Shown in pieces: positions 4,057-62,785 of a stretch of 63,264 bases of DNA. Origin of the DNA: Candidatus Uhrbacteria bacterium (GTDB taxonomy: Bacteria; Patescibacteriota; Patescibacteriia; UBA9934; GWF2-40-263); NCBI GenBank assembly GCA_016188475.1, contig JACPHT010000004.1, positions 1 to 63,264 on the forward strand. Direction: 5' to 3'. The translations under genes and the position numbers were made by a program. The notes below the pieces were generated by a model that worked only from the letters and a program-made list of their open reading frames with translations, ran no database searches and was not told the origin of the DNA. Each line of letters starts with the position of its first letter. The stretch's first letter is position 1.

Positions 4057-4117
4057 GCTAAAATGAGTCAAGAACCTTGTTTCGTCTATTGACAAAATCG
4101 GGTTTTTTTGGTATCTT
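4057..4117 (+). promoter_or_regulatory. promoter-like module, copy 2 (TTGACA-N17-TATCTT)
   Basis: The sequence gctaaaatgagtcaagaaccttgtttcgtctattgacaaaatcgggtttttttggtatctt is nearly identical to 3168-3228. It ends only 8 nt before the ATG at 4126, so the mRNA may be leaderless. Confidence 0.45.
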
Positions 4118-4125
4118 CGTTCTCT

Positions 4126-5805
4126 ATGATGAATATAAAGAAAGCCTTCATTTTTGTCTTTTTGCTCGCTATCGCAGTGAGCCCTGTTGTTCCATTTGCA
4201 AAAGCAACCGATGGGCAATGGAAAACAAACATTTCTGATGCAATATGGAATTACGACCTTTATCGTGTTGAGCGTCTTGCCTTTAACAAAACAGTTTCAG
4301 GTCCATACGAATTCAATCAAGGCGTGTTCGTGACAGAACAAGACAGCATTTCATTTTTGAAAGATGATTCAACGCTTCGTATTCCAAACGTGAACAAACA
4401 AATTACATCTTCATTTTGGCACAGCGCGCAAGATGACAGATTTGTTTATCTTGTTCCGTCAACAGATGGAAAATCATGGGCAACAGTTTACGAATACTTT
4501 GCAGATTCAGGCGTGATTAAAACTTTGGATACGATTGTTCGAAAGTCTGATGATTTGAATTATTTAACTTCAGCCGTTGATGGATCGCGTGTTTATTCAT
4601 CTATCTTGCATACAGATGCGATTACGAAAAATATCGAAAACAAACTCGTTGTCAGTGATTATCAAACAGGATATAAGTTTGATGATTTTACATGGGCATT
4701 GAACGCGCCGATTCAAGAAATTGTTGATGTGAAAGATTCTTTGGTTCTTGCGAAGTTTCAGTTTGATGGCGGGTTTAAGCAACTTTTGATGATTGATGAA
4801 AAGTCTAGAACAGTCACACCTGTTCCTGCAACATGGACGCAACCCGATGGAGATATTGTCGGCGCGCATTTTCTTTCCGATGGCACAATTCAATATTTCC
4901 AAAATTATCGTCTATATACTTTTAAGCCGGGCGTTGATTCTGTTTCGCATGAATCAGGCGGCGCTTACTTGAATTGGTTTGTTGACGCAGAAGACGCTAT
5001 TCAGTTTGTTGGCGATCGAATGGCGTATATTGATTCTGAAAACACACTGTATGTGACAAACCTTCAAGGCGCTTCCAGTTTCGGCAAGGCATTGAATGGC
5101 AAGTTCAACCTTGAAAAAGACGCGATTTATTATGAGTCTTTGGATGGATATATTGGATACACATTCAGCACAAAGACTTGGGAAGTTCAATCTTTTCTTG
5201 TGACAGATACTTATGAAGATACAATGGTTGGTACTGATGGTAGCGGAAATATCTGGTACAAGAATTTGAAAACAGGAAAAATCGTGAATGTTGGATTTGG
5301 ATCAAATCCTGTTCTTGCCGGACGCGAAGACGCTTATTGGAAAGGAACTGATGGAAAAATTTATCATGCTGAATTTTCTCCATTGCTTGACGTTGGCGAT
5401 GCAGACGTTCAAGCTGTGAAAGCTTTTGGAAAACCAACTGTATATATCATAAGTGGAAACAAAATGTGGAAAGTTGCTGACGAGGTAACTTATTTCACAT
5501 GGTTTGATTCATGGAAAGATGTGGTTTCAGTCTCACAACAAACTTTGAAAGTCTACACTGATTCACATACTGACATGGGTAACGCGCTTTTTGCTCCGGG
5601 GACTCGCGTGAAAGCTGTTAGCGATCCGCGTGTTTACGTAGTCGGCAGTGGCGGTTCACTTCATTGGATTGTTTCTGAAACAGTCGCGGATTCAATCTAC
5701 GGTCCGTCTTGGAACAAAGGAATTATTGAAGTGTCTTCAGTCAAGTTGTGGGATTATTCCAACGGAACTCAAATTAATTCAAACAAAGATATTAAAACAA
5801 TATAA
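4126..5805 (+). CDS. secreted hypothetical protein (signal peptide, beta-rich)
   Basis: The ORF track starts at a TTG at 4108. The ATG at 4126 gives MMNIKKAFIFVFLLAIAVSPVVPFAKA, a classical signal peptide. The rest is rich in Trp, Tyr, Gly and Asp. No catalytic motif is recognised. Confidence 0.75.
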   Translation: MMNIKKAFIFVFLLAIAVSPVVPFAKATDGQWKTNISDAIWNYDLYRVERLAFNKTVSGPYEFNQGVFVTEQDSISFLKDDSTLRIPNVNKQITSSFWHSAQDDRFVYLVPSTDGKSWATVYEYFADSGVIKTLDTIVRKSDDLNYLTSAVDGSRVYSSILHTDAITKNIENKLVVSDYQTGYKFDDFTWALNAPIQEIVDVKDSLVLAKFQFDGGFKQLLMIDEKSRTVTPVPATWTQPDGDIVGAHFLSDGTIQYFQNYRLYTFKPGVDSVSHESGGAYLNWFVDAEDAIQFVGDRMAYIDSENTLYVTNLQGASSFGKALNGKFNLEKDAIYYESLDGYIGYTFSTKTWEVQSFLVTDTYEDTMVGTDGSGNIWYKNLKTGKIVNVGFGSNPVLAGREDAYWKGTDGKIYHAEFSPLLDVGDADVQAVKAFGKPTVYIISGNKMWKVADEVTYFTWFDSWKDVVSVSQQTLKVYTDSHTDMGNALFAPGTRVKAVSDPRVYVVGSGGSLHWIVSETVADSIYGPSWNKGIIEVSSVKLWDYSNGTQINSNKDIKTI

Positions 5806-5846: not shown

Positions 5847-6182
5847 TTACTTTGTTTCAGTTGCGTATGTGTCTTTGAACTTTCGTTTTGCTTGGCGTTT
5901 TTTGTCTGACAAGAATGTAAGTTTTGCTCGTCTGACTTTCGCTGTTTTAACGAGTTCAATCTTTGAAATAACAGGTGAGTTGATTGGGTAGATTTTTTCC
6001 ACACCAACGCCCTCGCTCATTTTTCGGATCGTGAGAGTTTTTGATTTTCCTGATCCACGCACGCCAAGAATAATACCTTCAAAAATTTGCACGCGTTCGC
6101 GCTCTTCACCCTTTGAAGAGACATCTTTCACGCGTTCGTGTAAACGGACTGTTTGTCCTGCTTTGAGTTCGTTGAGTTCCAT
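5847..6182 (-). CDS. rplS: 50S ribosomal protein L19
   Basis: 111 aa. The segment RVQIFEGIILGVRGSGKSKTLTIRKMSEGVGVEKIYPINSPVISKIELV...VRRAKL matches the L19 family pattern. Confidence 0.95.
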   Translation of the reverse strand: MELNELKAGQTVRLHERVKDVSSKGEERERVQIFEGIILGVRGSGKSKTLTIRKMSEGVGVEKIYPINSPVISKIELVKTAKVRRAKLTFLSDKKRQAKRKFKDTYATETK

Positions 6183-47775: not shown

Positions 47776-50700
47776 ATGAATCTTAATAAGCAAAAAACAA
47801 AACAATGGATTTCGGTCGGACTCGTATTTGTTTTTGCTTTCGGAATTGTAAGCTCGGTGATTTTTTCACGTACAAAAGTTGTTCAGGCTTATGATTTAGG
47901 AGTGGGCACTGAACTTCAAGGAGCAACAAGTATGTCTGCTTGTGGCGCATCTCCTATTTCTCCTCCATGTATTGGTGAATCAGTCAAGGAAAGCATGAAA
48001 ATTTTAAATGAAAAAGTTGCTACTCCAGCTTGGAAAATTGCGTTGGTGCAGGGATTGTTGGATATAGGAAAATTTGTCACCAATCGTCTGGCATACGAAT
48101 CAGCATTGATTATCGCAAACGGCGGGATTGGACAAGGATCGATGTTTTATAAAAAAGGTATTGGCGAAGGATTTGCGGATTTTGGAAAAGAAGTCGCTGG
48201 AGAAGCAGTCGCTGAATTGAGTGAGGGTCTTGAAAGCGGATTAGGACTAAAACTCGGAGCGTGTCTTCCGCCACCGGATTTCACACTTGCTCTTCAGCTT
48301 GGAATCGCTCAAAGATATAAACCGCAAAAGCCTCGTTGTGACATTGATGAGGTTCTGAACAACTGGGAGAACTTTGCCAGTGAGATTCAATCTGCAATGG
48401 ATCCTGATCAAGCTAATAAAGCGATTCTGTCAAAATTTGCAGAATCACTTCAGCCAGGTCGAAATGAATTAAGCGCGGCAGTCAAAATAAATTATGAGGT
48501 TGCAAGACAGGTGGATGAGAAAAAAAATGCCAGTATTTTAGAACAACTAAGATCAAATGCGCTAAAACCAGTTAAAGATCCTACAACAGGACAAACCACG
48601 ACACCTTCGACTTTTGTTGAAGATGATTTTATTACAAAACTTAGAAAACTCGCTACAGGAGAAGACATCCAATTAAAAGCCTCTGATATTCTTGCCGCAG
48701 ATGATCCAAGCGGGGCGGCGATTAGCGGGCTTGCAATGACTGCGGCTTCGACTTTCACAAACACTCTTCTTTCTGAACTTTTCAATAAGATTTACAAAGG
48801 ACTTTTTGCTGTTACCGCAGAATCATCAGATCCGTTCAATCTAGAAGCGCTTCCGGACGATGAAGAATCCCAGCGCGATCGTCTTTCAGGAATTTTTGCG
48901 ACTCTCCCATTTGCGACAACAGACTACAACGCTCTTTCCGAGTTCATCATCTGTCCTCCGGAGGGAATTGCCAATCGCAGTGTAAACAACTGTGTGATGA
49001 ATGCGAATTTAATGGCCGCTATTTCAAGAGGAAATACAGGAGTACCTCTGACTGTTCAAGAAGCGATTGATGAAGGTTTACTCGATGGAAGTTGGAAGTT
49101 GATTTCTTCTCGCAAATTGGATGTGAATCAGGACCCGCTTTGTTATACATACAGTTTTTGTTACGCGAACCTTGTAAAAATGCGAAAAGCTCGAATCCTT
49201 CCGATCGGTTGGGAACTGGCGGCACAGGCTAACAATGACACAAATCCGAAATCTCTTAAGGAAATTGTCAGTGAGTTTAATAATTGCAGTCCAAATGGAA
49301 CGATTGATGCGGCTCATCCATTTTGTCATTTGATTGATCCTGATTGGGTTCTTAAATATCCAGACTCGCAATGTCGCGCGACAGTGAACGGCGAAATTCG
49401 TCTGACAATGTTAAGCCCTGGCAGACAGAGCGTTTGCGCTGATGCGCCAAGTTGTTTGGGAGAAGATGGAAATGGAAAATGCACAAATGGATACGGATAT
49501 TGTGTCAGCGAGAAAAACGTTTGGAGATTCAAAGGCGACGCGTGCGCTGAAGAGTATGCCGGTTGTTTATCAATGACAAATACCACAACAAAGAAACAAA
49601 ACGCGGTTATCATAAATACGGTTGATTACAGCGTGTGCGGAAAAGAAAACGCCGGTTGTCAGTGGTATCGCACAAATCGTTATTTAGATAACAAAGGAAC
49701 GAATACAAAACCAGAAGATGACACTTTTGAGTGGTTGGTTTCAAATGAATCGTTTGATACGGCAAAACATGAATCGGATTGGCGTTATCAGAATTCAAAC
49801 GGAGTGATGACTGATCCGACGCAATATACTCCTCAGAATGGAAGTTCCTATTCTGTTTTTTCGTACGAAGATCGTCAGTATTTCACTCACGCGGCAAAAG
49901 AATGTTCAAATAACGACGCCGGATGTTCTGAATTGTTTTCTTCAAATAGTTCAACTTTGAACATGAATCGGAATCCGAGTTTTGAAACAGATGAAAACAG
50001 CGATGGAGTTCCAGATCATTGGACGCTTCAAAATATCGCGGCAAATGATTTGGTGATTGAAAAAACCAAGCCGGCGGCGCGCGGAACATCATCAATAAAA
50101 CTTTTGCAAGGAAACGGAAAAGGCGTGAGCCAGTTGCTTTCTGTTTCGCCAAATCAGTTTTACACTTTGAGTTATTATGCTGTTTCAGAAACATCAAACC
50201 CGCAAAGCGCTGATGTTCGTCTTACATTTTTGGATAAAAACAGCAGTCCTGTAAGTTTGTCAGGTTTGTCGTTTGTTGGTTGTACAGCGATTGGAAACGA
50301 ATTGGTTGCCGTAAAAAACGTTGAAACAGAATGGATTCGGCAATCGTGCACATTTGGCGCTCCAAAAAATGCTTCTCAAATGAAAGTTTTGCTTGATTCA
50401 ACAAATATTCGCTATGACGCGATTCAGATTGAACCAAAAGAAACAGCAAGCACATTTGCTGAAGGTTTGAAGACCGACGGACAAGCGCAATACATAAAAA
50501 CAGCTCCGAATTATCTTGGTTGCGAAGGAAAAGCAACTGATCCTGCCGCGTGCAAAGCTTACGCGCAGGTTTGTGCTTCCCAAGACGTCGGATGCAATTT
50601 ATACAATCCAGACGACGGAGATCCGGCTGTTTCGGCGATTACAAGTTCTTTGGACATCTGTCCAAACGAGTGTGTTGGATATGACGCTTTCAAACAAGAA

Positions 50701-53700
50701 TCGACACTTTACGATGATGAAGATTTTCCAGTGCATTTCATTCCTTCAAAAGCTGTGACGTGTTCAGCGCAATATGTTGGATGCGATAGTTTTACGAATT
50801 TGAATATCGTTGGAGAGGGCGGAGAGGGAATTGAGTATTACACAACACTTCGAGCTTGCGCGACTCCGAAAATGACTGACGGATCATCAAACAAAGAATC
50901 CTCGACGTTTTTCACGTGGGAGGGATCAGACAATGCCGGTTATCAATTACGCTCATGGGTTTTGCTTGAATCAAATGAGAATGATGCTCCATGCACAAAA
51001 TGGAAAGTCAACGCGAAAGATCAGATGATTTGTGAAGAAGACGCAGCATATTTAACAACTGTTGCGGCAGATAAATCTTGTGATGACCACTCGGATATTT
51101 TCTCAAATCCAGATTGTCGAGAATTTTTTGACGCGTCAGGTATTGTTCATTATCGAAAGTTTTCAAAAACAGTAACAATAAGCGAAGAGTGCGCGCCATA
51201 TCGAAAAGATGTTTCGACAAAGTCTGATTGTGATACGTCTGGTGGATTTTGGGATCAGCAAGTTGGTTTCTGCCGGTACTTTGGTTTGACTTCCGAGAGC
51301 AATAGTTGTCCTTCTGCGCAAAACGGCTGTCGTTCATATACTGGAGGTGCAGGACGAAACGCGGTCACGCTTCTCAATGAAACATTTGAATCAGGATCGT
51401 ACGCGGGATTTGAGAAATTCGGTTCAGCCAATACTGATATAAAAATCAGCAACGAATCCATTGCAACAGACGGACATTCTTTGCGCGTGTCTGCTCCGGC
51501 TGGCACAAAAGGCGGATTTGCCACAACACAAGCTTATCTTGATGTAAATCAAATAAGTACAAAGTATGATCCAAACAATTCCGTGCAAACGTGTTCTAAG
51601 TTAGGTCATACTGTCACTCCTGCCGGCTGTGAAATCGCGCCTGATTGTGTTGTGTATTCCGGCGCGAACAGTTGCGGTCCTCTTGTGAACAAACTTGTTT
51701 CAGGGAAAACATTTGTTGTTCAATTCTGGGCAAAAGGCAATGGAAATTTACAAGCGTCAATTGTTGAATACGGAGGACAACAGAATTCCGTTTCTCATGA
51801 TTTTGGCGGCTCAATCGCTTTAACAGGAAATTGGAAAGTTTACTCGCTTGGCCCGTTCGATTCGAGTCAATACTCTGGAATTGAAAAAAATTCTATTCTT
51901 GCTTTTCAAACTGACACTGGAAAAGAATTTTTTATTGATAATTTGATTCTCAAACAAGTTGAAGAAAATATCACGATCGTGAAAGATTCTTGGGTTGTTC
52001 CGTCAACTTGCGACACTTCGCCTAACGGAGCTGTCACTCCGCAGTATTATCTTGGATGCGAGGCATATTCAGACAAAGACGGCAAAGCAAGTAATTTATA
52101 TCAATTCTCAAATTTGTGTTCAGAGGCAGTGGTCGGTTGCGAAGCGTTTAACAAAACATTTGAATCAGACTCAGCTTACAGTCAAGTGTTTAATGCAAGA
52201 TGTGTGCAAGGCACTGCAGGAGATTTGGCAAAACCGTCTTTTGTGAATCTAAACACTGCTTGTGTTGTTGACGGAAAAACATATTGCACAATTTCAACCG
52301 GCCGTTCGTATTGTACTTTCGATTATGATGGTACGTTTGAAAATAAACTGCCGAAAGAAGGAGACTTTGGAATTGTGTTTGGACCAGAAACCGTTTTATC
52401 TCCAGCTGACAGCGCAGTTTACATTGTTGACAATGGAAAAGCGGATTGCGACGCGAAAGTCGCGGGATGTCGAGAAGTCGGCGCTCCAAAATACAGTCAA
52501 GACTTGAAAAAAGTTGAAGGATTTGACAGTGCGTATTTTATAAACGATCCGGAACAGTACGGAGAAATTTTGTGCGACAATGAAGCGTTGTTCTGTGATG
52601 AATTTGCTTCAACCAAAGACGGAAATTTTTATTTCAAAGATCCGATTAAGAAAACTTGTGAATATCGAGCCGGAGTTGAAATTGAAAAACAGAAATTTTC
52701 AGGTTGGTTTAGAAGCGGCACAAGCGAGCCGTGTTATTGGAAAGACATTAACGGAACGGACGGATTCCAGCCAAAAGCAGATAATGCTTATATTATCGCT
52801 GGAGATCAAGCCGCGATTTGGCAAAACGGAGACAGCGCGTATGACGGTTGGGTTGGAAGCTGTCCTTCCAGCGCTGATTTGTGCACTGAATTTGCGGATG
52901 TTACAGATAATGAAAAACCATATCTTTTCCTCAATAACGACAAGTTGGACGAAGCCGCCACTGCTGATCCAGACGTTTGCAAAGGAAGAGTTAGTCAAAA
53001 ACTTGGTTGCGCTGTGTTCAACAATCGAAGCAAATCAGAGCTCAATTACAACGCGAGCGCTTCGTATGTTGTTTCAATTCACGCTGATGAATTGTTGAAT
53101 CAATCGCCAAACGCGCTTGTTGATCCTGTTAGTTGTACTATAACTGGAGGAGGAGAGTTTACACTTTCAGACGCAAGCAAAGTTGATCTTTGTCAGAGAA
53201 GGTGTGAATACAATCCAGCGCAAGGCGATTCGATTGAAACAAGCTTGAGCCAGGTTTCAGATGCCGCCACCAATACTTATGTTGAGCGTTCGTGTTTCAA
53301 AGTTGACGATTGTCCAATACTTGAAACAAAAAATGGAAAAGATATTAAAGCGACTAACTGCGCTGATGTTCCGAATTTCAAATTGGAAAACGATTCAAAC
53401 ACAGTTCTTCGGGTTGTGCGCGATCGCAGTTGTTCGTCGTGGCTCGCGTGCGATTCAGCGCGAACAAGTTGGAACGAGAGAAATAATAAATATGAACAGA
53501 TTTGCGATTCGATAAATTTGTGCACTGAAGGTGGTGCGCTTGGGGATCAGTCAACTTGCACAAAGTGGTCGCCTCGGGATCCGAAAATTTTAACAGCGTA
53601 TCAATATTCCAAACGCGACACGACATGGAGCGGTTCGGATTTATCAGGTTACGCGATTCCAAACAAATTGCCTGTTGAGCTTTATAATCAATTTAATATC

Positions 53701-56700
53701 AACCCGACAAAGGCTTGTGAGAAAAATGGAACACCTCAATTAAACAACGGTTTTCCAAAGGAATGCGATGCTGATAAAGATTGCGCGTCAGGATACTCTT
53801 GTAAAGAAGCTGAACCATCATATCGCTTGGTGAATGACGCTGGGCCGTGTAAAGCATCGGACGTACTTGGAAGCGAATGTAAAGTTGGTTTTTGTGAAAC
53901 CGGAGGCGAAGCGTGCGGAACAAAAGCCGATTGTGCCGGAGCGTCAAATAATTGTGTTATTGGATCGTGTCAGGAAACAGTAAAACCAGCGGACGCAAAA
54001 ACAAACTGCGTAAATGGAGATTGTTCATGCGCAACTAGCGCGGATTGTAAAACAGTTGGTACAGTAAAATATGTTTGTGACGCTGTTACTAGTGTTTGTG
54101 TTGATAAACAGCTTGGTGAGCAAAATTGTTATGCTGGCGCAACAAACGGATGTACTGCACAACAAACTTGCGTTCCAAACGCGACAACTGCAATTGGTTC
54201 GTGTATTGGCGGCAGATGTCTTACTTCGATTATTGATTCTGACAACAATGGTCAAGCTGACAAGTTAAAACCTGAAAATTATGTTAGCCAGTCGTGCCGC
54301 GGATATCCGGAGGTTGATTCTCCTTACTCACCGAACGTTGTTGAACAATGGGCAACGGCGAATGTTGAAGCTGACGGGAAAACAAAGGCGGCAGGATTCA
54401 CACCAACTTTAGAAGCAGACACACAAACTTGGTCTCGTCCTTACACATTCAAAACCGGTTATCAAGATTCCCAAATTTGCGCTCCACAAGGAAATGGAAA
54501 ATTTTCAAACTGTAATTGCAGTTACGACAAAGTTGAATACGCTGATGGAACAATTAACCGTTTTGAAGAAGTTGGTTCTTCCGCGACTCTTCCAACCGGC
54601 TTTTGTTCAGGCGGAGAGTTTGACGGACACATTTGTCAATCAAACGACGATTGCGCTGATAAAACAGAAAACCCATTAAGTTCCGGAACTTGTTTGAAAC
54701 AAACCCGCCGCGACACATTGTTTGGCTGGGACGGATATTGCATTGAGAAAGATTCGTCAATCCAGCTTTTCGCGAGCACTGATCCAAAAGATCAGGCGTG
54801 TTTAACATGGCTTCCTGTTGATCAACTCTCTGGCGCAACTGATTTGTACGCGAAATATTTAAGCGCCGGTTTTGAACCTGAAGATGCGTATTTTTGCGGA
54901 GAAATTAATGTTGCGTACGATTTTAATACAAACGGATATCACTGCGCTGAAACAGATGGCGGAAACTGTGATGATGAAGCTTCAACTGATGCTTTTCAAG
55001 ATGATGATCCTGATGAAGACACTTATTGTGCTACAGGCTCATTTGCGGTTATGGCTCCTTGCGGTGATCCATCGCCGGATGATAAGTGCACAGAAAGTTG
55101 GGGAGATGACGACTATCCATATTTCTGCGTTCCAGAATTGTCTTATAAAACAGAAGATGACGCCGATGGGGTCGAAGGCATGACTAAAAAGGGAGACAGG
55201 TGTGTTGTGCCAAAAACAGATGATGTTATTTATTCTGGATCAGAAGATGAAAACGGAAATACGATTTATTTTATGACTGCTGGAAATTGGAAATCATACA
55301 AAAAGTCTTATAGTGATTGCATGGTGCGAGGAGTGTTTAAATTATCTGATACGTATAATGGCTATTTTAGCGGAAGTAAATCCGGGATTTCATTGCAACC
55401 ATACGCGGCTTGCGAGACAATTTTGAAAGTCGGAACTCAAATTCCTGATGACAAAGGAAACTACAATGCGGCTTGGACAGATCGAGTTTGGAAGAGTAAA
55501 CAACCCCAATATTTTATTCAAGATAATTATGCGATAACAATCGGGGACAAAAAACTCAACGCGTTTGGCTATAAAGCAAGCACTGTTCCGGAAATTTTTG
55601 GACAAGCTTTTGGAATTACAAAGAAGCTTGATAAAGAAACAGTGCCTGATCCTTATCCTCATCGCGTGTACATGTGTCAAAATGGCGACAATCAAAAACT
55701 CGCGACAACTGATGGAGCTGGAGTATGCGATGCAGATTACGAAATTAAATCAGGAATCGGCGAAGCTCGACCGTATTACGGAATTGAAGTGTTATCTCCA
55801 TTAACTCTTGACAAAACATTATGCAAAAATGAAGGTTGTTCTTGTGCGGAAAATAAAGATTGCAATTTTGATTTAAAAATACAAGCGTCTGCTTCGTGTG
55901 GAAATATGGTTTGCACAGGTGGAGAATTTGATGGTAAAAAGTGCGATGAGAATCTTGGGAAACAGTATACTGATACTACAAAATTAGCGAAATGCGATGA
56001 TTTGCCTAATCAAACCAATGAAGAAAAGGAAACTAAAAAGAATTGCTATGCCGGATATTCTGATGAAGTGTGCGAAAGCAGTGGAGGATCGTGTGGCGGA
56101 CAATGTGTTGGAGGAGCAAAAAATGGAGTCTCATGCAATAAAACTTCAAATTGTGAAACACAGACGTGTGATGAGTTTTTTGTGAATACAAAGACAGGAC
56201 TCAAGAGTGTAACTCAATGCGTTTCAGATGAGAGTCTTCAAATTTCAATTCTTGAAAATCCTCCTGTATCAGATTTGGTCGTATCTCGACTGAAACAACT
56301 ATTCGCGTATTCATACGATTTGTTGAGATTTGAAAATGATGGTGTTTATACTGATGAAAATACAAATGATTTATTGGAAAATCACGATGATTTAGAAGCT
56401 AAGTCAAATACTGCTGAAGAAGTGTTTAAACAAGAACAGGGAGCAAATAAAGATTCTTGGATGTGGGATGAGCGCGCAAAAAATGGAGAGCCGCCTACGG
56501 TTGTTTCGCTTGGCGCGTGCGTTGGCGCCAAGTGTAAGGAAGGAACGGAAGGCGCGTTTACAGTCAACGACCAAGACGAAGGGGATATTTTGGCAAAAGG
56601 TTCAAAGCGCGCGAACGTGAGTTTCTTCACTTACGCTAACACAAACCAAATGCCGATTAGAAACATTGTTGTTGACTGGGGAGATGGAGAAGACATTACG

Positions 56701-57237
56701 GCTGGCGGAATGCCATGGCCGACAGATTCGCAAAGCGGTTCAAACGCGAGCGATAACTTCTACAAAAATCATAGAGGATTAAGTACGTCTGGAAATGAGA
56801 TCTGTCGAAGCGATGCTGATACGTTTGGTGAATCGCCTGAAGCGTGTTCAAGCGGATACGTTGTGTTCAGCCATGATTACGCGTGCAGTCAAGCTGATGT
56901 GAACAAGCTTTCCGACCGGGAGTGCGAGTTTGCCAATGACGGACGTTTGATTAACTCTCCGTGTTTGAGTTCAACAAAAGAAGGAAAAGCCGCGTGTGTT
57001 TTCCAGCCGCGTGTTCACGTCAAAGACAACTGGGGCTGGTGCACAGGATTCTGTGATGCTGGGTCAGATGGAAAAGAGGGGTGCTATGCTGGAGAAGACG
57101 TTGCTAATGATGAATGTCAGATAAACGTTTGTCCTAGTGAAGGGAAACTCGGTGACTGCCCTGATTCTTTAAATAATAAGTTTACAGATAACCCTTGGGT
57201 CAACTACGACGGAACAATAATCGTGGAAGTGGAATAA
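47776..57237 (+). CDS. giant (3,153-aa) cysteine-rich secreted/surface protein with an N-terminal TM anchor and two CBM4/9-like jelly-roll modules
   Basis: It is a single uninterrupted ORF. The N-terminus is KQWISVGLVFVFAFGIVSSVIF. Cys-rich segments occur throughout (for example CVNGDCSCATSADCKTVGTVKYVCDAVTSVCVD...). Two segments start with N-x-[ST]-F-E and end with a beta-strand such as IDNLILKQVE (about nt 49960-50440 and 51370-51965), which resemble carbohydrate-binding modules. Confidence 0.85.
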   Translation: MNLNKQKTKQWISVGLVFVFAFGIVSSVIFSRTKVVQAYDLGVGTELQGATSMSACGASPISPPCIGESVKESMKILNEKVATPAWKIALVQGLLDIGKFVTNRLAYESALIIANGGIGQGSMFYKKGIGEGFADFGKEVAGEAVAELSEGLESGLGLKLGACLPPPDFTLALQLGIAQRYKPQKPRCDIDEVLNNWENFASEIQSAMDPDQANKAILSKFAESLQPGRNELSAAVKINYEVARQVDEKKNASILEQLRSNALKPVKDPTTGQTTTPSTFVEDDFITKLRKLATGEDIQLKASDILAADDPSGAAISGLAMTAASTFTNTLLSELFNKIYKGLFAVTAESSDPFNLEALPDDEESQRDRLSGIFATLPFATTDYNALSEFIICPPEGIANRSVNNCVMNANLMAAISRGNTGVPLTVQEAIDEGLLDGSWKLISSRKLDVNQDPLCYTYSFCYANLVKMRKARILPIGWELAAQANNDTNPKSLKEIVSEFNNCSPNGTIDAAHPFCHLIDPDWVLKYPDSQCRATVNGEIRLTMLSPGRQSVCADAPSCLGEDGNGKCTNGYGYCVSEKNVWRFKGDACAEEYAGCLSMTNTTTKKQNAVIINTVDYSVCGKENAGCQWYRTNRYLDNKGTNTKPEDDTFEWLVSNESFDTAKHESDWRYQNSNGVMTDPTQYTPQNGSSYSVFSYEDRQYFTHAAKECSNNDAGCSELFSSNSSTLNMNRNPSFETDENSDGVPDHWTLQNIAANDLVIEKTKPAARGTSSIKLLQGNGKGVSQLLSVSPNQFYTLSYYAVSETSNPQSADVRLTFLDKNSSPVSLSGLSFVGCTAIGNELVAVKNVETEWIRQSCTFGAPKNASQMKVLLDSTNIRYDAIQIEPKETASTFAEGLKTDGQAQYIKTAPNYLGCEGKATDPAACKAYAQVCASQDVGCNLYNPDDGDPAVSAITSSLDICPNECVGYDAFKQESTLYDDEDFPVHFIPSKAVTCSAQYVGCDSFTNLNIVGEGGEGIEYYTTLRACATPKMTDGSSNKESSTFFTWEGSDNAGYQLRSWVLLESNENDAPCTKWKVNAKDQMICEEDAAYLTTVAADKSCDDHSDIFSNPDCREFFDASGIVHYRKFSKTVTISEECAPYRKDVSTKSDCDTSGGFWDQQVGFCRYFGLTSESNSCPSAQNGCRSYTGGAGRNAVTLLNETFESGSYAGFEKFGSANTDIKISNESIATDGHSLRVSAPAGTKGGFATTQAYLDVNQISTKYDPNNSVQTCSKLGHTVTPAGCEIAPDCVVYSGANSCGPLVNKLVSGKTFVVQFWAKGNGNLQASIVEYGGQQNSVSHDFGGSIALTGNWKVYSLGPFDSSQYSGIEKNSILAFQTDTGKEFFIDNLILKQVEENITIVKDSWVVPSTCDTSPNGAVTPQYYLGCEAYSDKDGKASNLYQFSNLCSEAVVGCEAFNKTFESDSAYSQVFNARCVQGTAGDLAKPSFVNLNTACVVDGKTYCTISTGRSYCTFDYDGTFENKLPKEGDFGIVFGPETVLSPADSAVYIVDNGKADCDAKVAGCREVGAPKYSQDLKKVEGFDSAYFINDPEQYGEILCDNEALFCDEFASTKDGNFYFKDPIKKTCEYRAGVEIEKQKFSGWFRSGTSEPCYWKDINGTDGFQPKADNAYIIAGDQAAIWQNGDSAYDGWVGSCPSSADLCTEFADVTDNEKPYLFLNNDKLDEAATADPDVCKGRVSQKLGCAVFNNRSKSELNYNASASYVVSIHADELLNQSPNALVDPVSCTITGGGEFTLSDASKVDLCQRRCEYNPAQGDSIETSLSQVSDAATNTYVERSCFKVDDCPILETKNGKDIKATNCADVPNFKLENDSNTVLRVVRDRSCSSWLACDSARTSWNERNNKYEQICDSINLCTEGGALGDQSTCTKWSPRDPKILTAYQYSKRDTTWSGSDLSGYAIPNKLPVELYNQFNINPTKACEKNGTPQLNNGFPKECDADKDCASGYSCKEAEPSYRLVNDAGPCKASDVLGSECKVGFCETGGEACGTKADCAGASNNCVIGSCQETVKPADAKTNCVNGDCSCATSADCKTVGTVKYVCDAVTSVCVDKQLGEQNCYAGATNGCTAQQTCVPNATTAIGSCIGGRCLTSIIDSDNNGQADKLKPENYVSQSCRGYPEVDSPYSPNVVEQWATANVEADGKTKAAGFTPTLEADTQTWSRPYTFKTGYQDSQICAPQGNGKFSNCNCSYDKVEYADGTINRFEEVGSSATLPTGFCSGGEFDGHICQSNDDCADKTENPLSSGTCLKQTRRDTLFGWDGYCIEKDSSIQLFASTDPKDQACLTWLPVDQLSGATDLYAKYLSAGFEPEDAYFCGEINVAYDFNTNGYHCAETDGGNCDDEASTDAFQDDDPDEDTYCATGSFAVMAPCGDPSPDDKCTESWGDDDYPYFCVPELSYKTEDDADGVEGMTKKGDRCVVPKTDDVIYSGSEDENGNTIYFMTAGNWKSYKKSYSDCMVRGVFKLSDTYNGYFSGSKSGISLQPYAACETILKVGTQIPDDKGNYNAAWTDRVWKSKQPQYFIQDNYAITIGDKKLNAFGYKASTVPEIFGQAFGITKKLDKETVPDPYPHRVYMCQNGDNQKLATTDGAGVCDADYEIKSGIGEARPYYGIEVLSPLTLDKTLCKNEGCSCAENKDCNFDLKIQASASCGNMVCTGGEFDGKKCDENLGKQYTDTTKLAKCDDLPNQTNEEKETKKNCYAGYSDEVCESSGGSCGGQCVGGAKNGVSCNKTSNCETQTCDEFFVNTKTGLKSVTQCVSDESLQISILENPPVSDLVVSRLKQLFAYSYDLLRFENDGVYTDENTNDLLENHDDLEAKSNTAEEVFKQEQGANKDSWMWDERAKNGEPPTVVSLGACVGAKCKEGTEGAFTVNDQDEGDILAKGSKRANVSFFTYANTNQMPIRNIVVDWGDGEDITAGGMPWPTDSQSGSNASDNFYKNHRGLSTSGNEICRSDADTFGESPEACSSGYVVFSHDYACSQADVNKLSDRECEFANDGRLINSPCLSSTKEGKAACVFQPRVHVKDNWGWCTGFCDAGSDGKEGCYAGEDVANDECQINVCPSEGKLGDCPDSLNNKFTDNPWVNYDGTIIVEVE

Positions 57238-57308: not shown

Positions 57309-57411
57309 TTTTGTTTTTCCGTCATTGCGAGCGAAGCGAAGCAATCTTCTGTTTTGTGTCATCTCGACCGAGGAGGCCAATAGCCGACGAGCGGAGAGAT
57401 CTCTCGACTTC

Positions 57412-57454
57412 GGTAAAGTTATTGCCTGAACTTGTTGAAGGCCATAACTTTACC
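57412..57454. repeat. stem-loop repeat, core GCCTGAACTTGTTGAAGGCC
   Basis: The sequence is ggtaaagttat-tgcctgaacttgttgaaggcc-ataactttacc, with a perfect 11-bp outer stem. Confidence 0.85.
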
Positions 57455-57614
57455 TTCGCTCGAGATGACAAAAAATCCTTGTGTCATTGCGAGGCCGAAG
57501 GCCGAAGCAATCTCTGCAAATCACGAGATTGCTTCGTCGTCACTGTGTTCCTCCTCGCAATGACATGACTCATTGTCTCCCTCTGTCCTACTCTGTCCCT
57601 CTTTGTTTTAAATT

Positions 57615-57704: not shown

Positions 57705-58367
57705 CTATTCGACAAGGGTTAGGACGAAGTCGAATTCGTTTCCTCCAGGTGTGGCTCTGTGGTATGAGATCGTCTTGAGGTCTGCGGTGATGATTCCGTT
57801 GTACTCGGTTCCCCCTTCCGCAGTATAACTGAACTTATTGCCGTAGACCTCACCCAACATATAGCCCTTCTTTCTTAGAAGAATGTTACCATCCTCCATT
57901 ATGGTTTCAACTTCAACGTTGTCGTTGGACTCATCACTAAAGTACATCCCATTCGGCGCAAGTCCCCAGTCCCCTGGTTCGTCCCACGTGACCGTCTGTT
58001 CCTTGTCCGAGCCAACAGCAACGTACTTGGTCAAGAACAGGGCGTCAGTCCGCTTGAACTCGATCTGAATCGTCCCCTCGACTTCTGCCTTGCACGAGCT
58101 CGAGGCTTCGCACTCAAGGTTTTCGTCGAAGTAGAAATCCCCGACGAAATCGTTCGGCGCGGTCGCAATGACCAGCCCGGTCTTGAGCTCACCATTGGAG
58201 TCCTCTCCGTTGACATAGCCGTCTTCGTTGTAGCTGTAGTTGCCACCAGTGTTGTCGGCCCCTCCACCCTCGCAACCAGCGAGAACAAAAATGGAAAGAG
58301 CAACTGTGATAATCACGGACAGGATCAGCCCGGCCATTCCTATCGTGGCCGCATTGATCTGCTTCAT
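57705..58367 (-). CDS. hypothetical lipoprotein (G+C-richer than the genome background)
   Basis: The RBS is AAAGGAGAGG. The signal peptide and lipobox read ...LSIFVLAGC. No other motif is recognised. Confidence 0.7.
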   Translation of the reverse strand: MKQINAATIGMAGLILSVIITVALSIFVLAGCEGGGADNTGGNYSYNEDGYVNGEDSNGELKTGLVIATAPNDFVGDFYFDENLECEASSSCKAEVEGTIQIEFKRTDALFLTKYVAVGSDKEQTVTWDEPGDWGLAPNGMYFSDESNDNVEVETIMEDGNILLRKKGYMLGEVYGNKFSYTAEGGTEYNGIITADLKTISYHRATPGGNEFDFVLTLVE

Positions 58368-58578: not shown

Positions 58579-58607
58579 TTGGCATATATTTCAACAGGTG
58601 TTAGAGT
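58579..58607 (+). promoter_or_regulatory. candidate promoter of the rSAM operon (TTGGCA-N17-TAGAGT)
   Basis: The hexamers were read directly. The region aligns with TTGACG-N17-TACGCT in the paralogous module at 62720-62750 (minus strand). Confidence 0.4.
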
Positions 58608-58664: not shown

Positions 58665-59756
58665 ATGCTGCCAAACACATTCTGGATGGTTACAAATTAT
58701 ACCTGCAATAACAGGTGTCTCTACTGTTATGCAACTGAAGGATGTTCAGATCCAAGCCAAAGCCAAGATATAATGGACTTTGATTATGCGACAGAAGTCA
58801 TGGAGGAACTTAAAAGATGCAACGCCGAACATTGCCTTCTTATCGGCGGTGAACCTACATTGTATCCCAGGCTTCTTGATCTTATCCGTTTCGGAACCAA
58901 GATCGGTCTCAAGATGAAATTGGTTTCGAATGGAAGAAAATTGGTTGACCGTGAATTCGTAAGGCAATTGAAGAATGCTGGCTTGATTCACTCAAGTGTG
59001 TCAATCGAGGGGGCGACCGCTGAAGAGCATAATAAGATTACGCAATCGAACAGCTTTCAGGAAAGTTGCGAAGGATTACAAAATCTCATATTGGAAGGGG
59101 TTTCATGTAATAGTATACTGACAGTCAGCTTACTGAATCTTGAAGATGTCATACCCTTGGGGAGATTGGTTCACGGCTTCGGTGCCAAAAATATTCTTTT
59201 CAATTTCAGTCTCCCATCTGTTGGTACCAATGGAATTAAAGCTTGTTCTTCTCCGAACCCTCAACAGTGTGTTGATGTCATTAGTGACGCGTATCTTCGT
59301 CTTAAGATTGAAGGAATCAAAGTCGGCTTTTTTGCCACTTTACCACTTTGTCTTTTTGACCAAGATGTCCTCCAACAAATGATAACAGAAGGAGTGATCG
59401 GGAGAGACTACCATTGCCATATTTTTTATGGCACTGGCGCGGCTTTTGAGCCTAACGGCAACGTCCTTCCGTGCACTCACTTTGTGAATTCTCCTCTCTT
59501 TAACGCCAAGGGCACAGATGGTCACTTTGCCTATAGCGGTAGGTTTGATCATGAATGGGAAGAAGGGATTCACAAACAATTCATTGAAACGGCATGGCGA
59601 TACCCGACCAAACACTGTAAACTTTGCAGTATGTGGGGTAAATGCTTTGGCGGCTGTCCTTTTCTCTGGATGCATTTTAATCCTGACGACTTCATCAGAA
59701 AGGAGGTGATGCAACATGGAAGCTGTCCAACTCTTGCTGGTGCGCAAGGGAGTTGA
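58665..59756 (+). CDS. radical SAM / SPASM-domain peptide-modifying enzyme
   Basis: CX3CX2C lies at residues 14-21 (TCNNRCLYCYA), followed by the SAM-binding motif GGEPTL. The C-terminal SPASM motifs are CHIFYGTGAAFEPNGNVLPC and CKLCSMWGKCFGGCP. The RBS is AAGGAAGG. Confidence 0.9.
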   Translation: MLPNTFWMVTNYTCNNRCLYCYATEGCSDPSQSQDIMDFDYATEVMEELKRCNAEHCLLIGGEPTLYPRLLDLIRFGTKIGLKMKLVSNGRKLVDREFVRQLKNAGLIHSSVSIEGATAEEHNKITQSNSFQESCEGLQNLILEGVSCNSILTVSLLNLEDVIPLGRLVHGFGAKNILFNFSLPSVGTNGIKACSSPNPQQCVDVISDAYLRLKIEGIKVGFFATLPLCLFDQDVLQQMITEGVIGRDYHCHIFYGTGAAFEPNGNVLPCTHFVNSPLFNAKGTDGHFAYSGRFDHEWEEGIHKQFIETAWRYPTKHCKLCSMWGKCFGGCPFLWMHFNPDDFIRKEVMQHGSCPTLAGAQGS

Positions 59757-59850
59757 GGAGCAGGCTCCAGTCCAAGACCCGAAACGTACATGTTTCGGGT
59801 CGTGCGACTGTTGCGACTGCGCCGATTGCTCCTGCGACTGCGTCAACTAG
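59716..59850 (+). CDS. candidate RiPP precursor peptide, 44 aa, Cys/Asp-rich core (not in the ORF track)
   Basis: AGGAGG (59701-59706) lies 9 nt before the ATG. My translation is MEAVQLLLVRKGVEEQAPVQDPKRTCFGSCDCCDCADCSCDCVN*. It overlaps the last 41 nt of the rSAM gene in another frame and is followed by a terminator. Confidence 0.6.
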   Translation: MEAVQLLLVRKGVEEQAPVQDPKRTCFGSCDCCDCADCSCDCVN

Positions 59851-59862
59851 CCAGTTGGCTGG

Positions 59863-59895
59863 GCTAGAGAGAATTATTCTCTAGCTTTTTTATTT
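59863..59895 (+). terminator. intrinsic terminator after the peptide ORF
   Basis: The sequence is gctagaga-gaattat-tctctagc followed by ttttttattttt. Confidence 0.7.
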
Positions 59896-59927
59896 TTGTT
59901 TTGTGTTGTATTGTGTGTTTTACAAAT

Positions 59928-60605
59928 ATGTCAAAAATAATTGTCAAACAAAACATTGAAAAAGACGCATGGAATTGGTGGAGCGCTTGCAATAAAATTT
60001 CTTATGGCACAGATTGGAAACAGAGAATAGACGAAAAAATTCGAAGTAAATTAGTTGGCAAAACTAGAAAACAAGCTTTTCGGTTTCTGGTTCCTTTTTT
60101 GAAGAATTTATATAAAAAAGAAAATATTATTCAAAAAAAGAAAGAAATACAAAATATTTTCAATCAGCATCAAGAAGAAATTTTTTTTCGAATGCGGAAA
60201 GTTACTGGCAAGAAAATTTATCGAAAAGATTTTGTTTGCTATTTGACAACGTTTCCGAGAGCTCCATATTTTTATTCGCATGGTTATGTTTGGCTTCCAA
60301 TGATCTGGCCAAGAGAAACTTATGTGAGAACGTTCATTCATGAATTACTTCATTTTCAAACTTACGCTTATTGGCAGACGAGATGTTTAAAAAAGTTAAC
60401 TTCGTATGAATTTGAAGACTTGAAAGAGGCGTTAACAATCGTTTTAAATGAAGAATTTATAGATTTAATTATTTGGCCAGATAAAGGATACAAAATTCAC
60501 AAAAGTTTAAGAAATAAATTATTAAAATTTTGGCGAGTGAATAGAAATTTTGAAAAACTCATAAATCATGGAGTAACTATTATCGTAAATCAAAAAACAA
60601 CATAG
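59928..60605 (+). CDS. hypothetical protein with an HExxH motif (possible Zn-metallopeptidase), very A+T-rich
   Basis: The ATG at 59928 gives MSKIIVKQNIEKDAW... The motif FIHELLHFQTYAYW is at nt 60339-60353. There is no signal peptide and no obvious SD. Confidence 0.5.
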   Translation: MSKIIVKQNIEKDAWNWWSACNKISYGTDWKQRIDEKIRSKLVGKTRKQAFRFLVPFLKNLYKKENIIQKKKEIQNIFNQHQEEIFFRMRKVTGKKIYRKDFVCYLTTFPRAPYFYSHGYVWLPMIWPRETYVRTFIHELLHFQTYAYWQTRCLKKLTSYEFEDLKEALTIVLNEEFIDLIIWPDKGYKIHKSLRNKLLKFWRVNRNFEKLINHGVTIIVNQKTT

Positions 60606-60623
60606 CTATTAGCACACACGTTT

Positions 60624-60649
60624 GGGTCAGGTCTTGAATTTTAGAATTT
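60624..60649. repeat. 26-bp perfect inverted repeat, left arm
   Basis: The sequence is gggtcaggtcttgaattttagaattt. It includes the stop codon and the last codons of the transposase gene. Confidence 0.9.
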
Positions 60650-61504
60650 GTTATCTTTGATGTTGTTGATAATCTTGCTAACCATGGTGTAATGCAAATC
60701 AACATAATCAGCAATTTCTTTCTGAGAATATCCGAGTTGTGTGTGAGCAAAACAAATCAAATCATCTCTTATTTTTTTATTCTTCAGTATTTCAGAATCA
60801 AAAAGATCTTCAAGAGATGGCCGACCGACAAATCTCTGAATTCTAGGGATTTCCGTTATTTTCTCCTGATCAGTTTTTGTATCACGTACCCAATCAACAA
60901 ATTGTTGAAAACCAAGTACAATGCCTTCATTTACGTTTTCAAATGGGCTATTCTTGCCAATACCATCCGTTACAAATTGTTCGTATTTTTTCTGAGCGTT
61001 TGATATTTTATTATCGAAAAAATTTAGGATCCATTCTGTTGTAAGCCAGACAGGTTTTATTTCTTTTCCAGCAGTTGATAAGTAGCTGCTCCATTCCCAT
61101 TCAATTGGAGATGTGACTGTGCCTGCTCTTACTGGATTGAGCACAATGTATCGAGCAACCTCAAGCAGATAAGGATCTTTTTCGATCAGAAACGTCTTAT
61201 AGCGACTTTGAAACAAATGCCCAACTGTTTTGTGAGTGAAATTAAATCGTTGTGTATAAACTCCATTGAGTTGCCTCATTCCTTTTGACAGGTTTCCTTC
61301 CGGTGTCTCAAGAAGAAGATGATAGTGATTGTCCATCAGACAATACGCGTGACATAACCAGTTGTAGCGTTCAATCGTTGTTTTAACATTTTGGAGAAAA
61401 TTGTTTCGATCGGTGTCGTTTAGGAAAATTTTTTTTCGATTATCTCCACGAGTGGTAATGTGATAAAGAGCTCCTGGGTACTCGATACGCAAAGGTCGTG
61501 CCAT
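60641..61504 (-). CDS. Y1 (IS200-like/HUH) transposase with a C-terminal DnaA-type helix-turn-helix
   Basis: It has ALYHITTRG, the HUH motif (CLMDNHYHLLLE), the catalytic Tyr helix (ARYIVLNPVRAG...WEWSSY) and a C-terminal HTH (LGYSQKEIADYVDLHYTMVSKIINN). Confidence 0.85.
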   Translation of the reverse strand: MARPLRIEYPGALYHITTRGDNRKKIFLNDTDRNNFLQNVKTTIERYNWLCHAYCLMDNHYHLLLETPEGNLSKGMRQLNGVYTQRFNFTHKTVGHLFQSRYKTFLIEKDPYLLEVARYIVLNPVRAGTVTSPIEWEWSSYLSTAGKEIKPVWLTTEWILNFFDNKISNAQKKYEQFVTDGIGKNSPFENVNEGIVLGFQQFVDWVRDTKTDQEKITEIPRIQRFVGRPSLEDLFDSEILKNKKIRDDLICFAHTQLGYSQKEIADYVDLHYTMVSKIINNIKDNKF

Positions 61505-61980: not shown

Positions 61981-62664
61981 CTAATGAATTTGTACTAAGG
62001 AAGAACATAGTCGCATGGACATGTCGCCTTTCACGAGCGTTTTGAAAAGTTCATCCTTGTACTCTGGTGTTCCGGAGTACGCGCATAATGGCAGAAGATT
62101 AATCGTCTTGGCCAGACGCGTGAACTCGCACTCTTTGTGGTATGCCTCCAACTCGGCACGCCACTTTTTCGTACAATGATCAACTGGATCAGTTGATGAG
62201 CCTATAGGTTCGAACAAGAAAGTATCTTCCGGCAATGTTTTGTACTTCCACTGCCGGAAATGAATGTATTCATGGAATATAACAAGCTGTGCGTAATCTT
62301 TGTTACCGAATAGAAGTTGCGGTTTGACCATCAGCGTTGGCTGAAGATCTTGCGTATCCGACTCACTGCTCGATATCATTTTCTTTGGAACGAGCATGAA
62401 TGCGGCCGCGTAGTCGTCTGTCCACGAGACTGCAACTTCTGTATCCTCGATCGCTTTGTAAAGTTTAGTTCTGATACCTGGTGTTGGATGTGTTGCGAGA
62501 AGAATACGCAGGGATTCTTCGAGTTCATTTGTCGTATAGTTCACGATTGGAACTTGCTTTGTGCGATGTGTTTGACTGGTTGCTCGAGCTTCATCTTGGT
62601 TTTGACTGATGTGCAGAATGCTGACTCCGGCCAAAATGCAAATGATCAGGATAAGACACTTCAT
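61981..62664 (-). CDS. secreted hypothetical protein with an HExxH motif (possible Zn-metallopeptidase)
   Basis: GGAGG lies 9 nt upstream of the ATG at 62664 (Met12 of the ORF-track protein). The signal peptide is MKCLILIICILAGVSIL. The motif VIFHEYIHFRQW is at nt 62260-62274. Confidence 0.6.
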   Translation of the reverse strand: MKCLILIICILAGVSILHISQNQDEARATSQTHRTKQVPIVNYTTNELEESLRILLATHPTPGIRTKLYKAIEDTEVAVSWTDDYAAAFMLVPKKMISSSESDTQDLQPTLMVKPQLLFGNKDYAQLVIFHEYIHFRQWKYKTLPEDTFLFEPIGSSTDPVDHCTKKWRAELEAYHKECEFTRLAKTINLLPLCAYSGTPEYKDELFKTLVKGDMSMRLCSSLVQIH

Positions 62665-62785
62665 GATGACTTTCCTCCACAGGTTGTAATAGAACATGTT
62701 GCATCCATTGCAACTGACAAGCGTAACACGATTTTTAATTTACGTCAAGCATTTTTAGGCTAAATTTAGACAAAAAACACAAGAC

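Follow-up and report, generated by a model that had tools for sequence, protein, structure and literature searches.

The 63,264-nucleotide stretch of Candidatus Uhrbacteria DNA analysed here (the window) carries on its forward strand a gene for a radical S-adenosylmethionine (SAM) enzyme with a SPASM-type C-terminal region (58665..59756, 363 residues, a presumed peptide maturase). Overlapping its 3′ end is a 44-codon open reading frame (ORF; 59716..59850, forward strand) that encodes the Cys- and Asp-rich peptide MEAVQLLLVRKGVEEQAPVQDPKRTCFGSCDCCDCADCSCDCVN. A reading made from the sequence only had proposed this pair as a candidate new system for making a RiPP (a peptide synthesized ribosomally and then modified post-translationally), and both profile searches and the conservation of the small ORF lent support to the proposal. 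The genes belong to a conserved, genuine and apparently undescribed radical SAM-peptide system. We consider it very likely that the two products are paired as enzyme and substrate, and probable that the genes form a conserved cassette of the RiPP maturase-substrate type. The system would be distinguished by its C-D-C unit, a new leader motif, the lack of a RiPP recognition element (RRE), a divergent SPASM domain and novel HExxH partner proteins.

The small ORF is kept beside the enzyme gene

In a homologue search with the enzyme, about 56 proteins with 38-85% identity formed a well-defined family, beyond which the matches dropped off sharply. One-genome-per-species contigs and JGI metagenomes were scanned as well and yielded 97 loci. 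Members of the enzyme family are encoded in about 70 of them; the taxonomic terms used below for loci, such as Patescibacteria or DPANN-labelled, are the labels on the locus records. Conservation of the peptide gene was counted in the related loci with usable flanks, about 60, where identity to the window enzyme runs from 87% down to 28%. A small ORF (same strand or adjacent) accompanies the enzyme gene in all of these. The apparent exceptions were all explained. Some are on truncated contigs (L042, L050, L071, L076, L082, L085), and other peptides had been missed by the first filter (those of L006, L014, L016, L017, L068 and L083, as well as that of L004/L037/L038, whose core has two Cys). 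The peptide gene is on the opposite strand in L066 and after the partner gene in L073. A reverse look-up by identity with two of the peptides led to contigs having an adjacent radical SAM gene.

The peptide gene lies downstream of the enzyme gene in Patescibacteria loci and upstream of it in DPANN-labelled loci (Woesearchaeota, Nanoarchaeia); the Nanoarchaeia locus sits on a 623-kb contig. The type of peptide co-varies with the enzyme clade and with this gene order. Two tandem precursor genes are present in some loci (L059/L086, L061).

The ORF varies synonymously, as expected of a coding frame under constraint. Among five close loci, the core CDCCDCxDCSCDCVN varies solely by synonymous TGC/TGT and GAC/GAT changes plus Ala/Ser. 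Over the whole ORF, pairs of these loci differ by 9-15 synonymous codons, or by 2 for the near-identical L032/L033. The two other frames of the peptide region contain stops in several loci. This comparison points to purifying selection acting on the peptide frame.

Chance was evaluated within the window. Segments with at least two [DE]C and at least three Cys in their last 20 residues, read stop-to-stop on both strands, have a sole instance in the 63 kb, at 59716-59850. For a looser criterion, a segment of 25-130 residues with C[DE]C, the chance rate is 0.04 per 550 nt. With the strict pattern found only there and the loose one so rare, chance does not explain the pairing of enzyme and peptide. 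Overall, the data indicate that the 44-residue ORF is a genuine gene for a bipartite precursor, functionally tied to the enzyme as its dedicated partner.

A programmed frameshift fusing the peptide to the enzyme was considered and rejected, since elsewhere the peptide gene is separate, upstream or on the opposite strand. No natural enzyme-peptide fusions were found among about 260 family sequences inspected. A profile search with 29 peptides returned 19 called proteins, all unnamed or annotated as 'hypothetical protein', and the same 29 peptides gave no NCBIfam match at E ≤ 1 apart from an irrelevant one at 0.22. Another of the apparent exceptions is L003/L035 (~6028-6161; enzyme 83% identical), in which one indel puts leader and core in different frames; this reflects either an assembly error or a (recent) pseudogene.

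A two-part precursor built on a C-D-C unit

All the peptides have a two-part design: a helical, hydrophobic stretch at the N-terminus that closes with [K/R/N/Q]G (LLLVRKG, LIETLKG, ILERLNG and VETLSLKG are instances), then a linker, and a C-terminal Cys/Asp core. In the peptide alignment, leader and core are conserved and the linker between them is variable, with a length of 15-35 residues. As is generally the case for a RiPP cassette, the precursor gene adjoins the enzyme gene and conservation is confined to the two functional parts of the peptide. In the window peptide, the predicted leader comprises residues 1-25 (MEAVQLLLVRKGVEEQAPVQDPKRT, 59716..59790), with a hydrophobic or amphipathic N-terminal stretch followed by the [K/R/N]G motif. 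Residues 26-44 (CFGSCDCCDCADCSCDCVN, 59791..59850 with the stop codon) would form the core, in which the C-D-C or D-C unit is kept family-wide.

Most local features named in the sequence-only reading were found as described. The 44-codon ORF is present, an AGGAGG Shine-Dalgarno sequence (59701-59706, forward strand) lies 9 nt before its ATG, and the overlap with the enzyme gene measures 41 nt, in another frame. The octamer tgcgactg occurs three times (TGCGACTG at 59803, 59812 and 59833). A terminator-like hairpin plus T-run directly follows the peptide gene (59861..59897, forward strand; 11 pairs at 59861-59887, then TTTTATTTTT). A count of eight Cys and five Asp in the last 19 residues needed correction: the eight Cys are there, accompanied by four Asp, and the fifth Asp is residue 21, in the leader half. 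The stretch of the enzyme overlapped by the peptide ORF, residues 350-363, is disordered in the AlphaFold2 model (predicted local distance difference test score, pLDDT, below 50), so that the overlap would cost the enzyme nothing structured. About 60 nt upstream of the enzyme gene, a promoter-like site, TTGGCA-17-TAGAGT with TG (58579..58607, forward strand), is a weak consensus match; since such sites are no more numerous here than expected from shuffled sequence, it is a candidate only.

Five types of core were distinguished. The window and relatives whose enzymes are 41-87% identical have [CDC]CDC[A/S/N/G]DCSCDC(VN/KC/KN), and enzymes at about 35-43% identity are accompanied by GCDC[R/K]GCD(KD/NS). 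Tandem 7-mers CDCxDCx, in 3 to at least 7 copies, make up the third type (L011, L052, L068) and a single unit, NCDCKK, the fourth (L004/L037/L038). The fifth type, in DPANN-labelled loci, comprises CDCGDCSSDNCDC..GDCVCTDCNECGND, ACDCGCEQDGEGFC and DCECDCDCQGTDC. Copy number thus runs from one CDC (L004) to at least seven CDCPDCV units (L068). The sole universal core feature is a Cys-flanked acidic residue (C-D-C), the Asp being occasionally replaced by Glu or Asn. That the universal unit is CDC instead of CX3D had not been foreseen in the sequence-only reading.

The enzyme has no RRE and a divergent SPASM-type region

Membership of the radical SAM superfamily follows from PF04055 (71.8 bits against a cutoff of 29.5) and from the C14-x3-C18-x2-C21 motif, invariant in the 44 family members from which conserved positions were read. 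The motifs anticipated for the window enzyme are all present: CX3CX2C at residues 14-21 (CNNRCLYC), GGEPTL at residues 61-66, and two SPASM-type Cys motifs of the forms GX4C and CX2CX5CX3C (G265-x4-C270 and C318-x2-C321-x5-C327-x3-C331), both invariant in the family. Seven C-terminal Cys are conserved (229, 251, 270, 318, 321, 327 and 331). The complete list of invariants reads C14/C18/C21, GGEP, C229, C251-H252, P269-C270-T271-H272, C318, C321, W324-G325, C327 and G330-C331-P332. The full SPASM set is incomplete, with no conserved Cys after C331; C354 is found in close relatives only. The SPASM profile PF13186 was not reported for the window enzyme at E ≤ 1 and is precomputed for few relatives only, and the SPASM domain alone gave no match to PDB sequences. 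Because the last SPASM Cys is lacking and PF13186 is unmatched, the family is best described from its sequences as a divergent SPASM/twitch-like variant. One auxiliary cluster may have a non-Cys or open ligand position, since the last canonical Cys is unconserved.

Comparison with profile hidden Markov models placed the enzyme outside every curated radical SAM/SPASM subfamily. Pfam recognized the generic Radical_SAM domain only, and neither Pfam nor NCBIfam has a curated family for the enzyme. The best NCBIfam match was NirJ2 (74 bits, cutoff 500); others were MftC (67 bits, cutoff 265), StsB (61.4 bits, cutoff 625), PapB NF047865 (45.5 bits, cutoff 340; 70.6 bits for the relative in L052) and the anaerobic sulfatase-maturating enzyme (anSME) model TIGR03942 (44.5 bits, cutoff 349.45). 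Four divergent relatives likewise scored far below NCBIfam cutoffs. A profile search of the PDB gave distant matches only: SkfB at 79 bits over the radical SAM core (residues 8-169), and SuiB and anSME over the full length. The AlphaFold2 model (pLDDT 87) matched the folds of BlsE, SuiB, anSME, SkfB, MoaA and PqqE. The top match was BlsE, a twitch enzyme; the full-length matches were SuiB and anSME, with template modelling (TM) scores of 0.67-0.70.

The absence of an N-terminal RRE and an anSME-like architecture had been read from the window, and both were upheld. The radical SAM barrel begins at residue 5 in the model and the Fe-S motif at residue 14, which leaves no room for an RRE. No PqqD-like or RRE gene was conserved nearby in a clustering of the neighbours in related loci.

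The enzyme family is large and centred on CPR bacteria and DPANN archaea

A scan of 1.84 billion cluster representatives (50% clustering) with the enzyme-family profile gave 576 representatives at E ≤ 1e-30. The best 150 of these 576, all at E ≤ 1e-53, are mostly 340-360 residues long. The family therefore comprises hundreds of sequence clusters. The window had been read as coming from a genome resembling those in the candidate phyla radiation (CPR), a setting supported by the labels of related loci. The extension to DPANN archaea had not been foreseen, and the distribution of the cassette appears to be centred on both groups.

Some bacterial-type cassettes are on contigs labelled as an archaeon or as non-CPR taxa: a Candidatus Iainarchaeum metagenome-assembled genome (MAG; L012), a Mariniphaga MAG (L011), an Elusimicrobiaceae MAG (L004) and, in several instances, MAG contigs called 'uncultured Gammaproteobacteria'. 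The explanation would be either that the cassette was transferred horizontally or that the contigs were wrongly binned or labelled. Eight proteins of about 900-1300 residues (P0259, P0265, P0271, P0282, P0300, P0310, P0314 and P0327) contain three to four stretches matching the family profile and may be multi-radical-SAM fusions or mis-joined gene calls.

HExxH partner proteins and mobility of the cassette

Downstream of the terminator-like element, the window encodes a 225-residue HExxH...E protein (59928..60605, forward strand), a putative zinc metallopeptidase or leader peptidase. Members of its family adjoin the enzyme gene in 33 related loci, on either side and on either strand. Their invariant residues are D13, H138, E139, H142, E167, T170 and Y188, and the HExxH motif with a Glu 25 residues downstream corresponds to a gluzincin arrangement. 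The protein has no Pfam or NCBIfam family. Its AlphaFold2 model is of high quality (pLDDT 96); a fold search with it returned nothing significant, the best E values being 0.4 (PDB) and 0.06 (BFVD). The weak matches were nearly all zincins, among them M1 aminopeptidases, LTA4H, ArdC, BlaR1, selecase and SprT-like proteins.

In 7 loci with GCDC[R/K]GCDKD-type peptides, the place of this partner is taken by a protein of about 207 residues with HE[IL]CH...DEG and a Peptidase_MA_2 match just below threshold. The idea that the two proteins form one family was rejected (profile-profile probability 1.3%) and, since no profile homology is detectable, we treat them as independent recruitments. Yet another HExxH protein is encoded in L052. 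The recruitment of two to three unrelated HExxH proteins to the cassette argues for a metallopeptidase step in the pathway, for which removal of the leader would be the simplest reading. That the HExxH proteins are leader peptidases seems to us about evenly balanced. Two peptidase candidates of this kind had been pointed out in the window. The association holds for the protein at 59928..60605; the second, at 61981..62697, has a counterpart in none of the related loci and was rejected as a part of the system.

The 225-residue family is also seen without a nearby radical SAM gene, in L098 (5001-6101) and in L099-L101. One such protein carries a fused transglutaminase-core domain and has a methyltransferase as neighbour; another lies beside SMODS/SLATT genes, resembling a cyclic-oligonucleotide-based anti-phage signalling system (CBASS), and a serine recombinase.

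The three genes move together. In L106 (Logan SRR22387853_26724, 1028-4440), the trio of radical SAM, peptide and HExxH genes is inserted between RF-1 and a major facilitator superfamily (MFS) gene on one side and Sua5 on the other. The backbone is otherwise syntenic with the window (RF-1, Sua5, KsgA, a 230-residue gene and a giant protein), where the trio comes after the giant gene instead. This different position on a syntenic backbone indicates that the three genes move as one module. The absence of an adjacent transporter gene, noted beforehand, is true within the window, and neighbour clustering of the related loci revealed no conserved transporter. The exceptions are the MFS gene that precedes the trio in L106, the sole locus seen with an adjacent one, and an ABC transporter pair in one lineage (L016/L077). 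Neither further tailoring enzymes nor an alternative substrate gene were conserved nearby.

Comparison with known systems

A close parallel is with PapB and the freyrasin ranthipeptides, a class defined by a thioether from Cys sulfur to a non-alpha acceptor carbon. There, too, a radical SAM/SPASM enzyme lies beside a short precursor with repeated Cys and Asp, and the acidic residue is Asp or Glu. The window enzyme nevertheless falls outside the PapB family and has no RRE. The unit here is C-D-C and not C-x3-D, the leader motif is another one, and Cys is in twofold excess. PapB occurs in Paenibacillus and relatives, the present cassette in CPR and DPANN. SCIFF peptides (six Cys in forty-five residues) and their maturase CteB share with it a Cys-rich precursor of about 45 residues beside a SPASM enzyme, no obligatory transporter, and a wide distribution that suggests a physiological rather than an antibiotic role. 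However, the SCIFF precursor model matches none of the 29 peptides, and no SCIFF-maturase model is among the matches listed for the window enzyme or four relatives. CteB also has an N-terminal RRE, whereas the present enzymes begin directly at the Fe-S motif.

QhpD and QhpC resemble the cassette in that a radical SAM/SPASM enzyme forms several intrapeptide Cys-Asp/Glu thioethers in a small Cys/Asp-rich polypeptide. Their target is the gamma-subunit of quinohemoprotein amine dehydrogenase, which stays within the producer's own machinery. In contrast, no amine dehydrogenase genes lie near the cassettes, the peptide here is much shorter and built on repeats, and no QhpD model is among the NCBIfam matches listed. 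With anSME the enzyme shares length, domain plan (radical SAM barrel plus SPASM, no RRE), one of the best full-length fold matches and action on Cys in a peptide. It differs from anSME by a score far below cutoff, by the missing last SPASM Cys, by a dedicated small peptide instead of sulfatases, and by the absence of the substrate motif C/S-x-P/A-x-R from all peptides.

The pathways to pyrroloquinoline quinone (PQQ; PqqA/E) and mycofactocin (MftA/C) likewise bring together a SPASM enzyme, its small peptide and some peptidase, and PqqE and MftC are detectable relatives. Those systems have, however, a separate or fused RRE (PqqD, MftB) and further tailoring enzymes, their cores are Glu/Tyr or Val-Tyr, and the enzyme scores here are far below their cutoffs. 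Nor does the enzyme belong to the sactisynthases: StsB scores far below its cutoff, and SkfB, the best PDB sequence match, aligns over the radical SAM core only. By these comparisons, the cassette appears to work like a ranthipeptide/SCIFF or QhpD system, on an anSME domain plan and with PQQ/mycofactocin gene logic, and to be a member of none of them.

Proposed chemistry and alternative explanations

In the mechanism that we propose, the RRE-less enzyme would bind the leader directly; SuiB makes contact with its leader through the catalytic and bridging regions and not through the RRE. The enzyme would reductively cleave SAM, and the 5′-deoxyadenosyl radical would take a hydrogen from the Cys-flanked acidic residue (Asp, sometimes Glu or Asn). 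The adjacent Cys thiolate would then close a thioether. Because the family is without the last SPASM Cys, an auxiliary Fe-S cluster might have a site open to hold this thiolate. Repetition at each unit would give a compact, multiply crosslinked peptide keeping spare thiols and carboxylates. The leader would probably be removed, in about two thirds of the loci, by the 225-residue HExxH...E protein or the unrelated MA-clan HExxH protein.

There are precedents for such chemistry, C-S bond formation at side-chain carbons of Asp being a recurrent radical SAM reaction. QhpD forms Cys-Asp/Glu thioethers, RimO makes a C-S bond at the beta-carbon of Asp, and known ranthipeptide enzymes use acceptors that match the Glu or Asn seen now and then in place of the core Asp. 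PapB is described (PMC9413430) as making Cys-Asp/Glu thioethers and as accepting Cys-Xn-Asp with n = 0-6 in vitro, so that a crosslink between adjacent Cys and Asp is chemically feasible. As the specific reaction of the present enzyme, the Cys-to-Asp thioether is possible, and we give it somewhat less than an even chance.

Several points weigh against this picture. The thioether is drawn by analogy with other enzymes, and the enzyme scores far below cutoff for the PapB, SCIFF-maturase, sactisynthase and anSME families. The conserved CDC unit differs from the CX3D of PapB substrates. Core Cys are twice as numerous as Asp, so not every Cys can pair with an Asp. Neither an RRE nor another known leader-binding domain was found. 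As for the partner, its protease activity is putative, an HExxH protein is missing from the well-flanked L009, L012, L017, L018 and L053, and the 225-residue family also occurs far from any radical SAM gene; its role in the system is thus not obligatory.

Given that no transporter is conserved, the product may just as well act inside the cell, in metal or redox biology, as be secreted. In view also of the thiols and carboxylates that would be spare after crosslinking and of the genome-reduced symbiont hosts, a part in metal handling or redox biology, or use as a peptide-derived cofactor, has to be weighed beside a secreted bioactive peptide. In its boldest form, which we regard as doubtful, the proposal would be that new radical SAM chemistry on C-D-C units (such as the closing of seven-membered rings from a Cys and the Asp next to it) yields an unprecedented thiol- and carboxylate-rich crosslinked peptide, or a cofactor or metallophore. 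The system would be characteristic of CPR and DPANN and shared by them, and would serve core physiology, for instance the handling of metals, the buffering of redox state or contact with the host, rather than supply an antibiotic.

The same enzyme-substrate pair might carry out another reaction: sactionine formation (S to C-alpha), anSME-like Cys oxidation of the formylglycine kind, epimerisation, C-C crosslinking or formation of thio-heterocycles. We judge this unlikely, while noting that the family is equidistant from SPASM enzymes of varied chemistry (NirJ2, AhbD, MftC, ScmF, StsB, HxsC, SkfB, BlsE, SuiB and anSME being among the best matches), that sequence similarity within the superfamily is a poor predictor of chemistry, and that the core holds two Cys for every Asp. 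Nevertheless, the only feature common to all cores is the Cys-flanked acidic residue (or Asn), as if both residue types were needed, and no core contains the anSME recognition motif.

A peptide-derived small molecule, a cofactor or metallophore in the manner of PQQ or mycofactocin, would require that the CDC or DC unit be crosslinked and excised by peptidases, the repeats being copies. The gene set of small peptide, RRE-less SPASM enzyme and metallopeptidase fits this logic, and a single enzyme family goes with precursors of 1 to at least 7 units. No transporter is conserved, and the 576 representatives are widespread in genome-reduced CPR and DPANN organisms, which keep few dispensable genes. 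Yet some loci lack the peptidase partner, additional tailoring enzymes are not conserved, and conservation extends to residues flanking and following the CDC units (CDCCDCxDCSCDC[VK][NC]), which suggests that the core matters in its entirety and not as one tripeptide. This explanation is improbable in our view.

More improbable by far is that the peptide is an unmodified metal- or Fe-S-binding accessory, resembling a metallothionein or phytochelatin or serving as a cluster, sulfur or electron donor, and that the enzyme acts on something else. Alternating thiol and carboxylate residues do resemble metal-binding peptides, and the enzyme is without an RRE. But a conserved leader-like motif with a variable linker, a variable number of repeats and duplicated precursor genes characterize RiPP precursors, not accessory subunits, about 260 family members include no fusion with the peptide, and no gene for an alternative substrate is conserved nearby. 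Lastly, an anSME beside a chance or non-functional frame, which size, absence of an RRE and overall fold (TM about 0.68) might recall, is refuted as far as sequence analysis can do so by the TIGR03942 score (44.5 bits against 349.45), by the retention of the small ORF with synonymous variation in related loci and by the lack of a sulfatase gene near the cassette in any locus examined.

Novelty of the system

No description of this radical SAM-peptide family was found in open-access papers or on bioRxiv, the literature covered (subscription-only papers were outside the scope). CPR and DPANN organisms have very small genomes, in which biosynthetic gene clusters are generally reported to be few or lacking. 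A survey counted zero in its Patescibacteria MAGs (PMC11613949). The cassette escapes standard annotation: the precursor is often uncalled, and enzyme, peptide and partner are all without a curated family in Pfam or NCBIfam. If our reading is correct, the cassette would provide a tractable two-gene system for new radical SAM peptide chemistry on a minimal C-D-C motif, as well as a handle on the physiology of organisms not yet culturable alone. In that case, profile models for annotating such loci could be built from the motif of the leader and from the signature of the enzyme (PCTHF, WGxCxGGCP).

Genes and repeats flanking the cassette

Upstream of the cassette, the giant gene (47776-57237, forward strand) encodes a protein of 3153 residues, 148 of them Cys, that has a hydrophobic segment at its N-terminus; its sole Pfam match is a marginal CBM_4_9. 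Homologues adjoin the cassette in L083, L081 and L008 and lie on the same contig in L106, with enzymes only 36-54% identical; this proximity may reflect synteny or a functional link. Kinship of the giant protein with the large secreted proteins beside archaeal cassettes was rejected, as there was no BLAST similarity. Between the giant gene and the cassette, 57705-58367 (reverse strand) encodes a 220-residue protein whose N-terminus resembles that of a lipoprotein (…LAGC) and which has no known domain. It is kept only in L083, again between the giant-protein gene and the cassette, and with a single related locus it was rejected as a part of the system.

Directly downstream of the cassette, 60641-61504 (reverse strand) encodes a protein resembling the REP-associated tyrosine transposases (RAYT), with a C-terminal helix-turn-helix and a Y1_Tnp domain (NF047646, 93 bits against a cutoff of 80); it was not found in the related loci. 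At 57315-57565, where intergenic DNA separates the giant gene from the 220-residue gene just upstream of the cassette, there is a cluster of short palindromic repeats of the repetitive extragenic palindrome (REP) kind (GTCATTGCGAG..GAAGCAATC and its complement), several copies of which form inverted pairs. The cassette is thus flanked by REP-like repeats on one side and the RAYT-like gene on the other.

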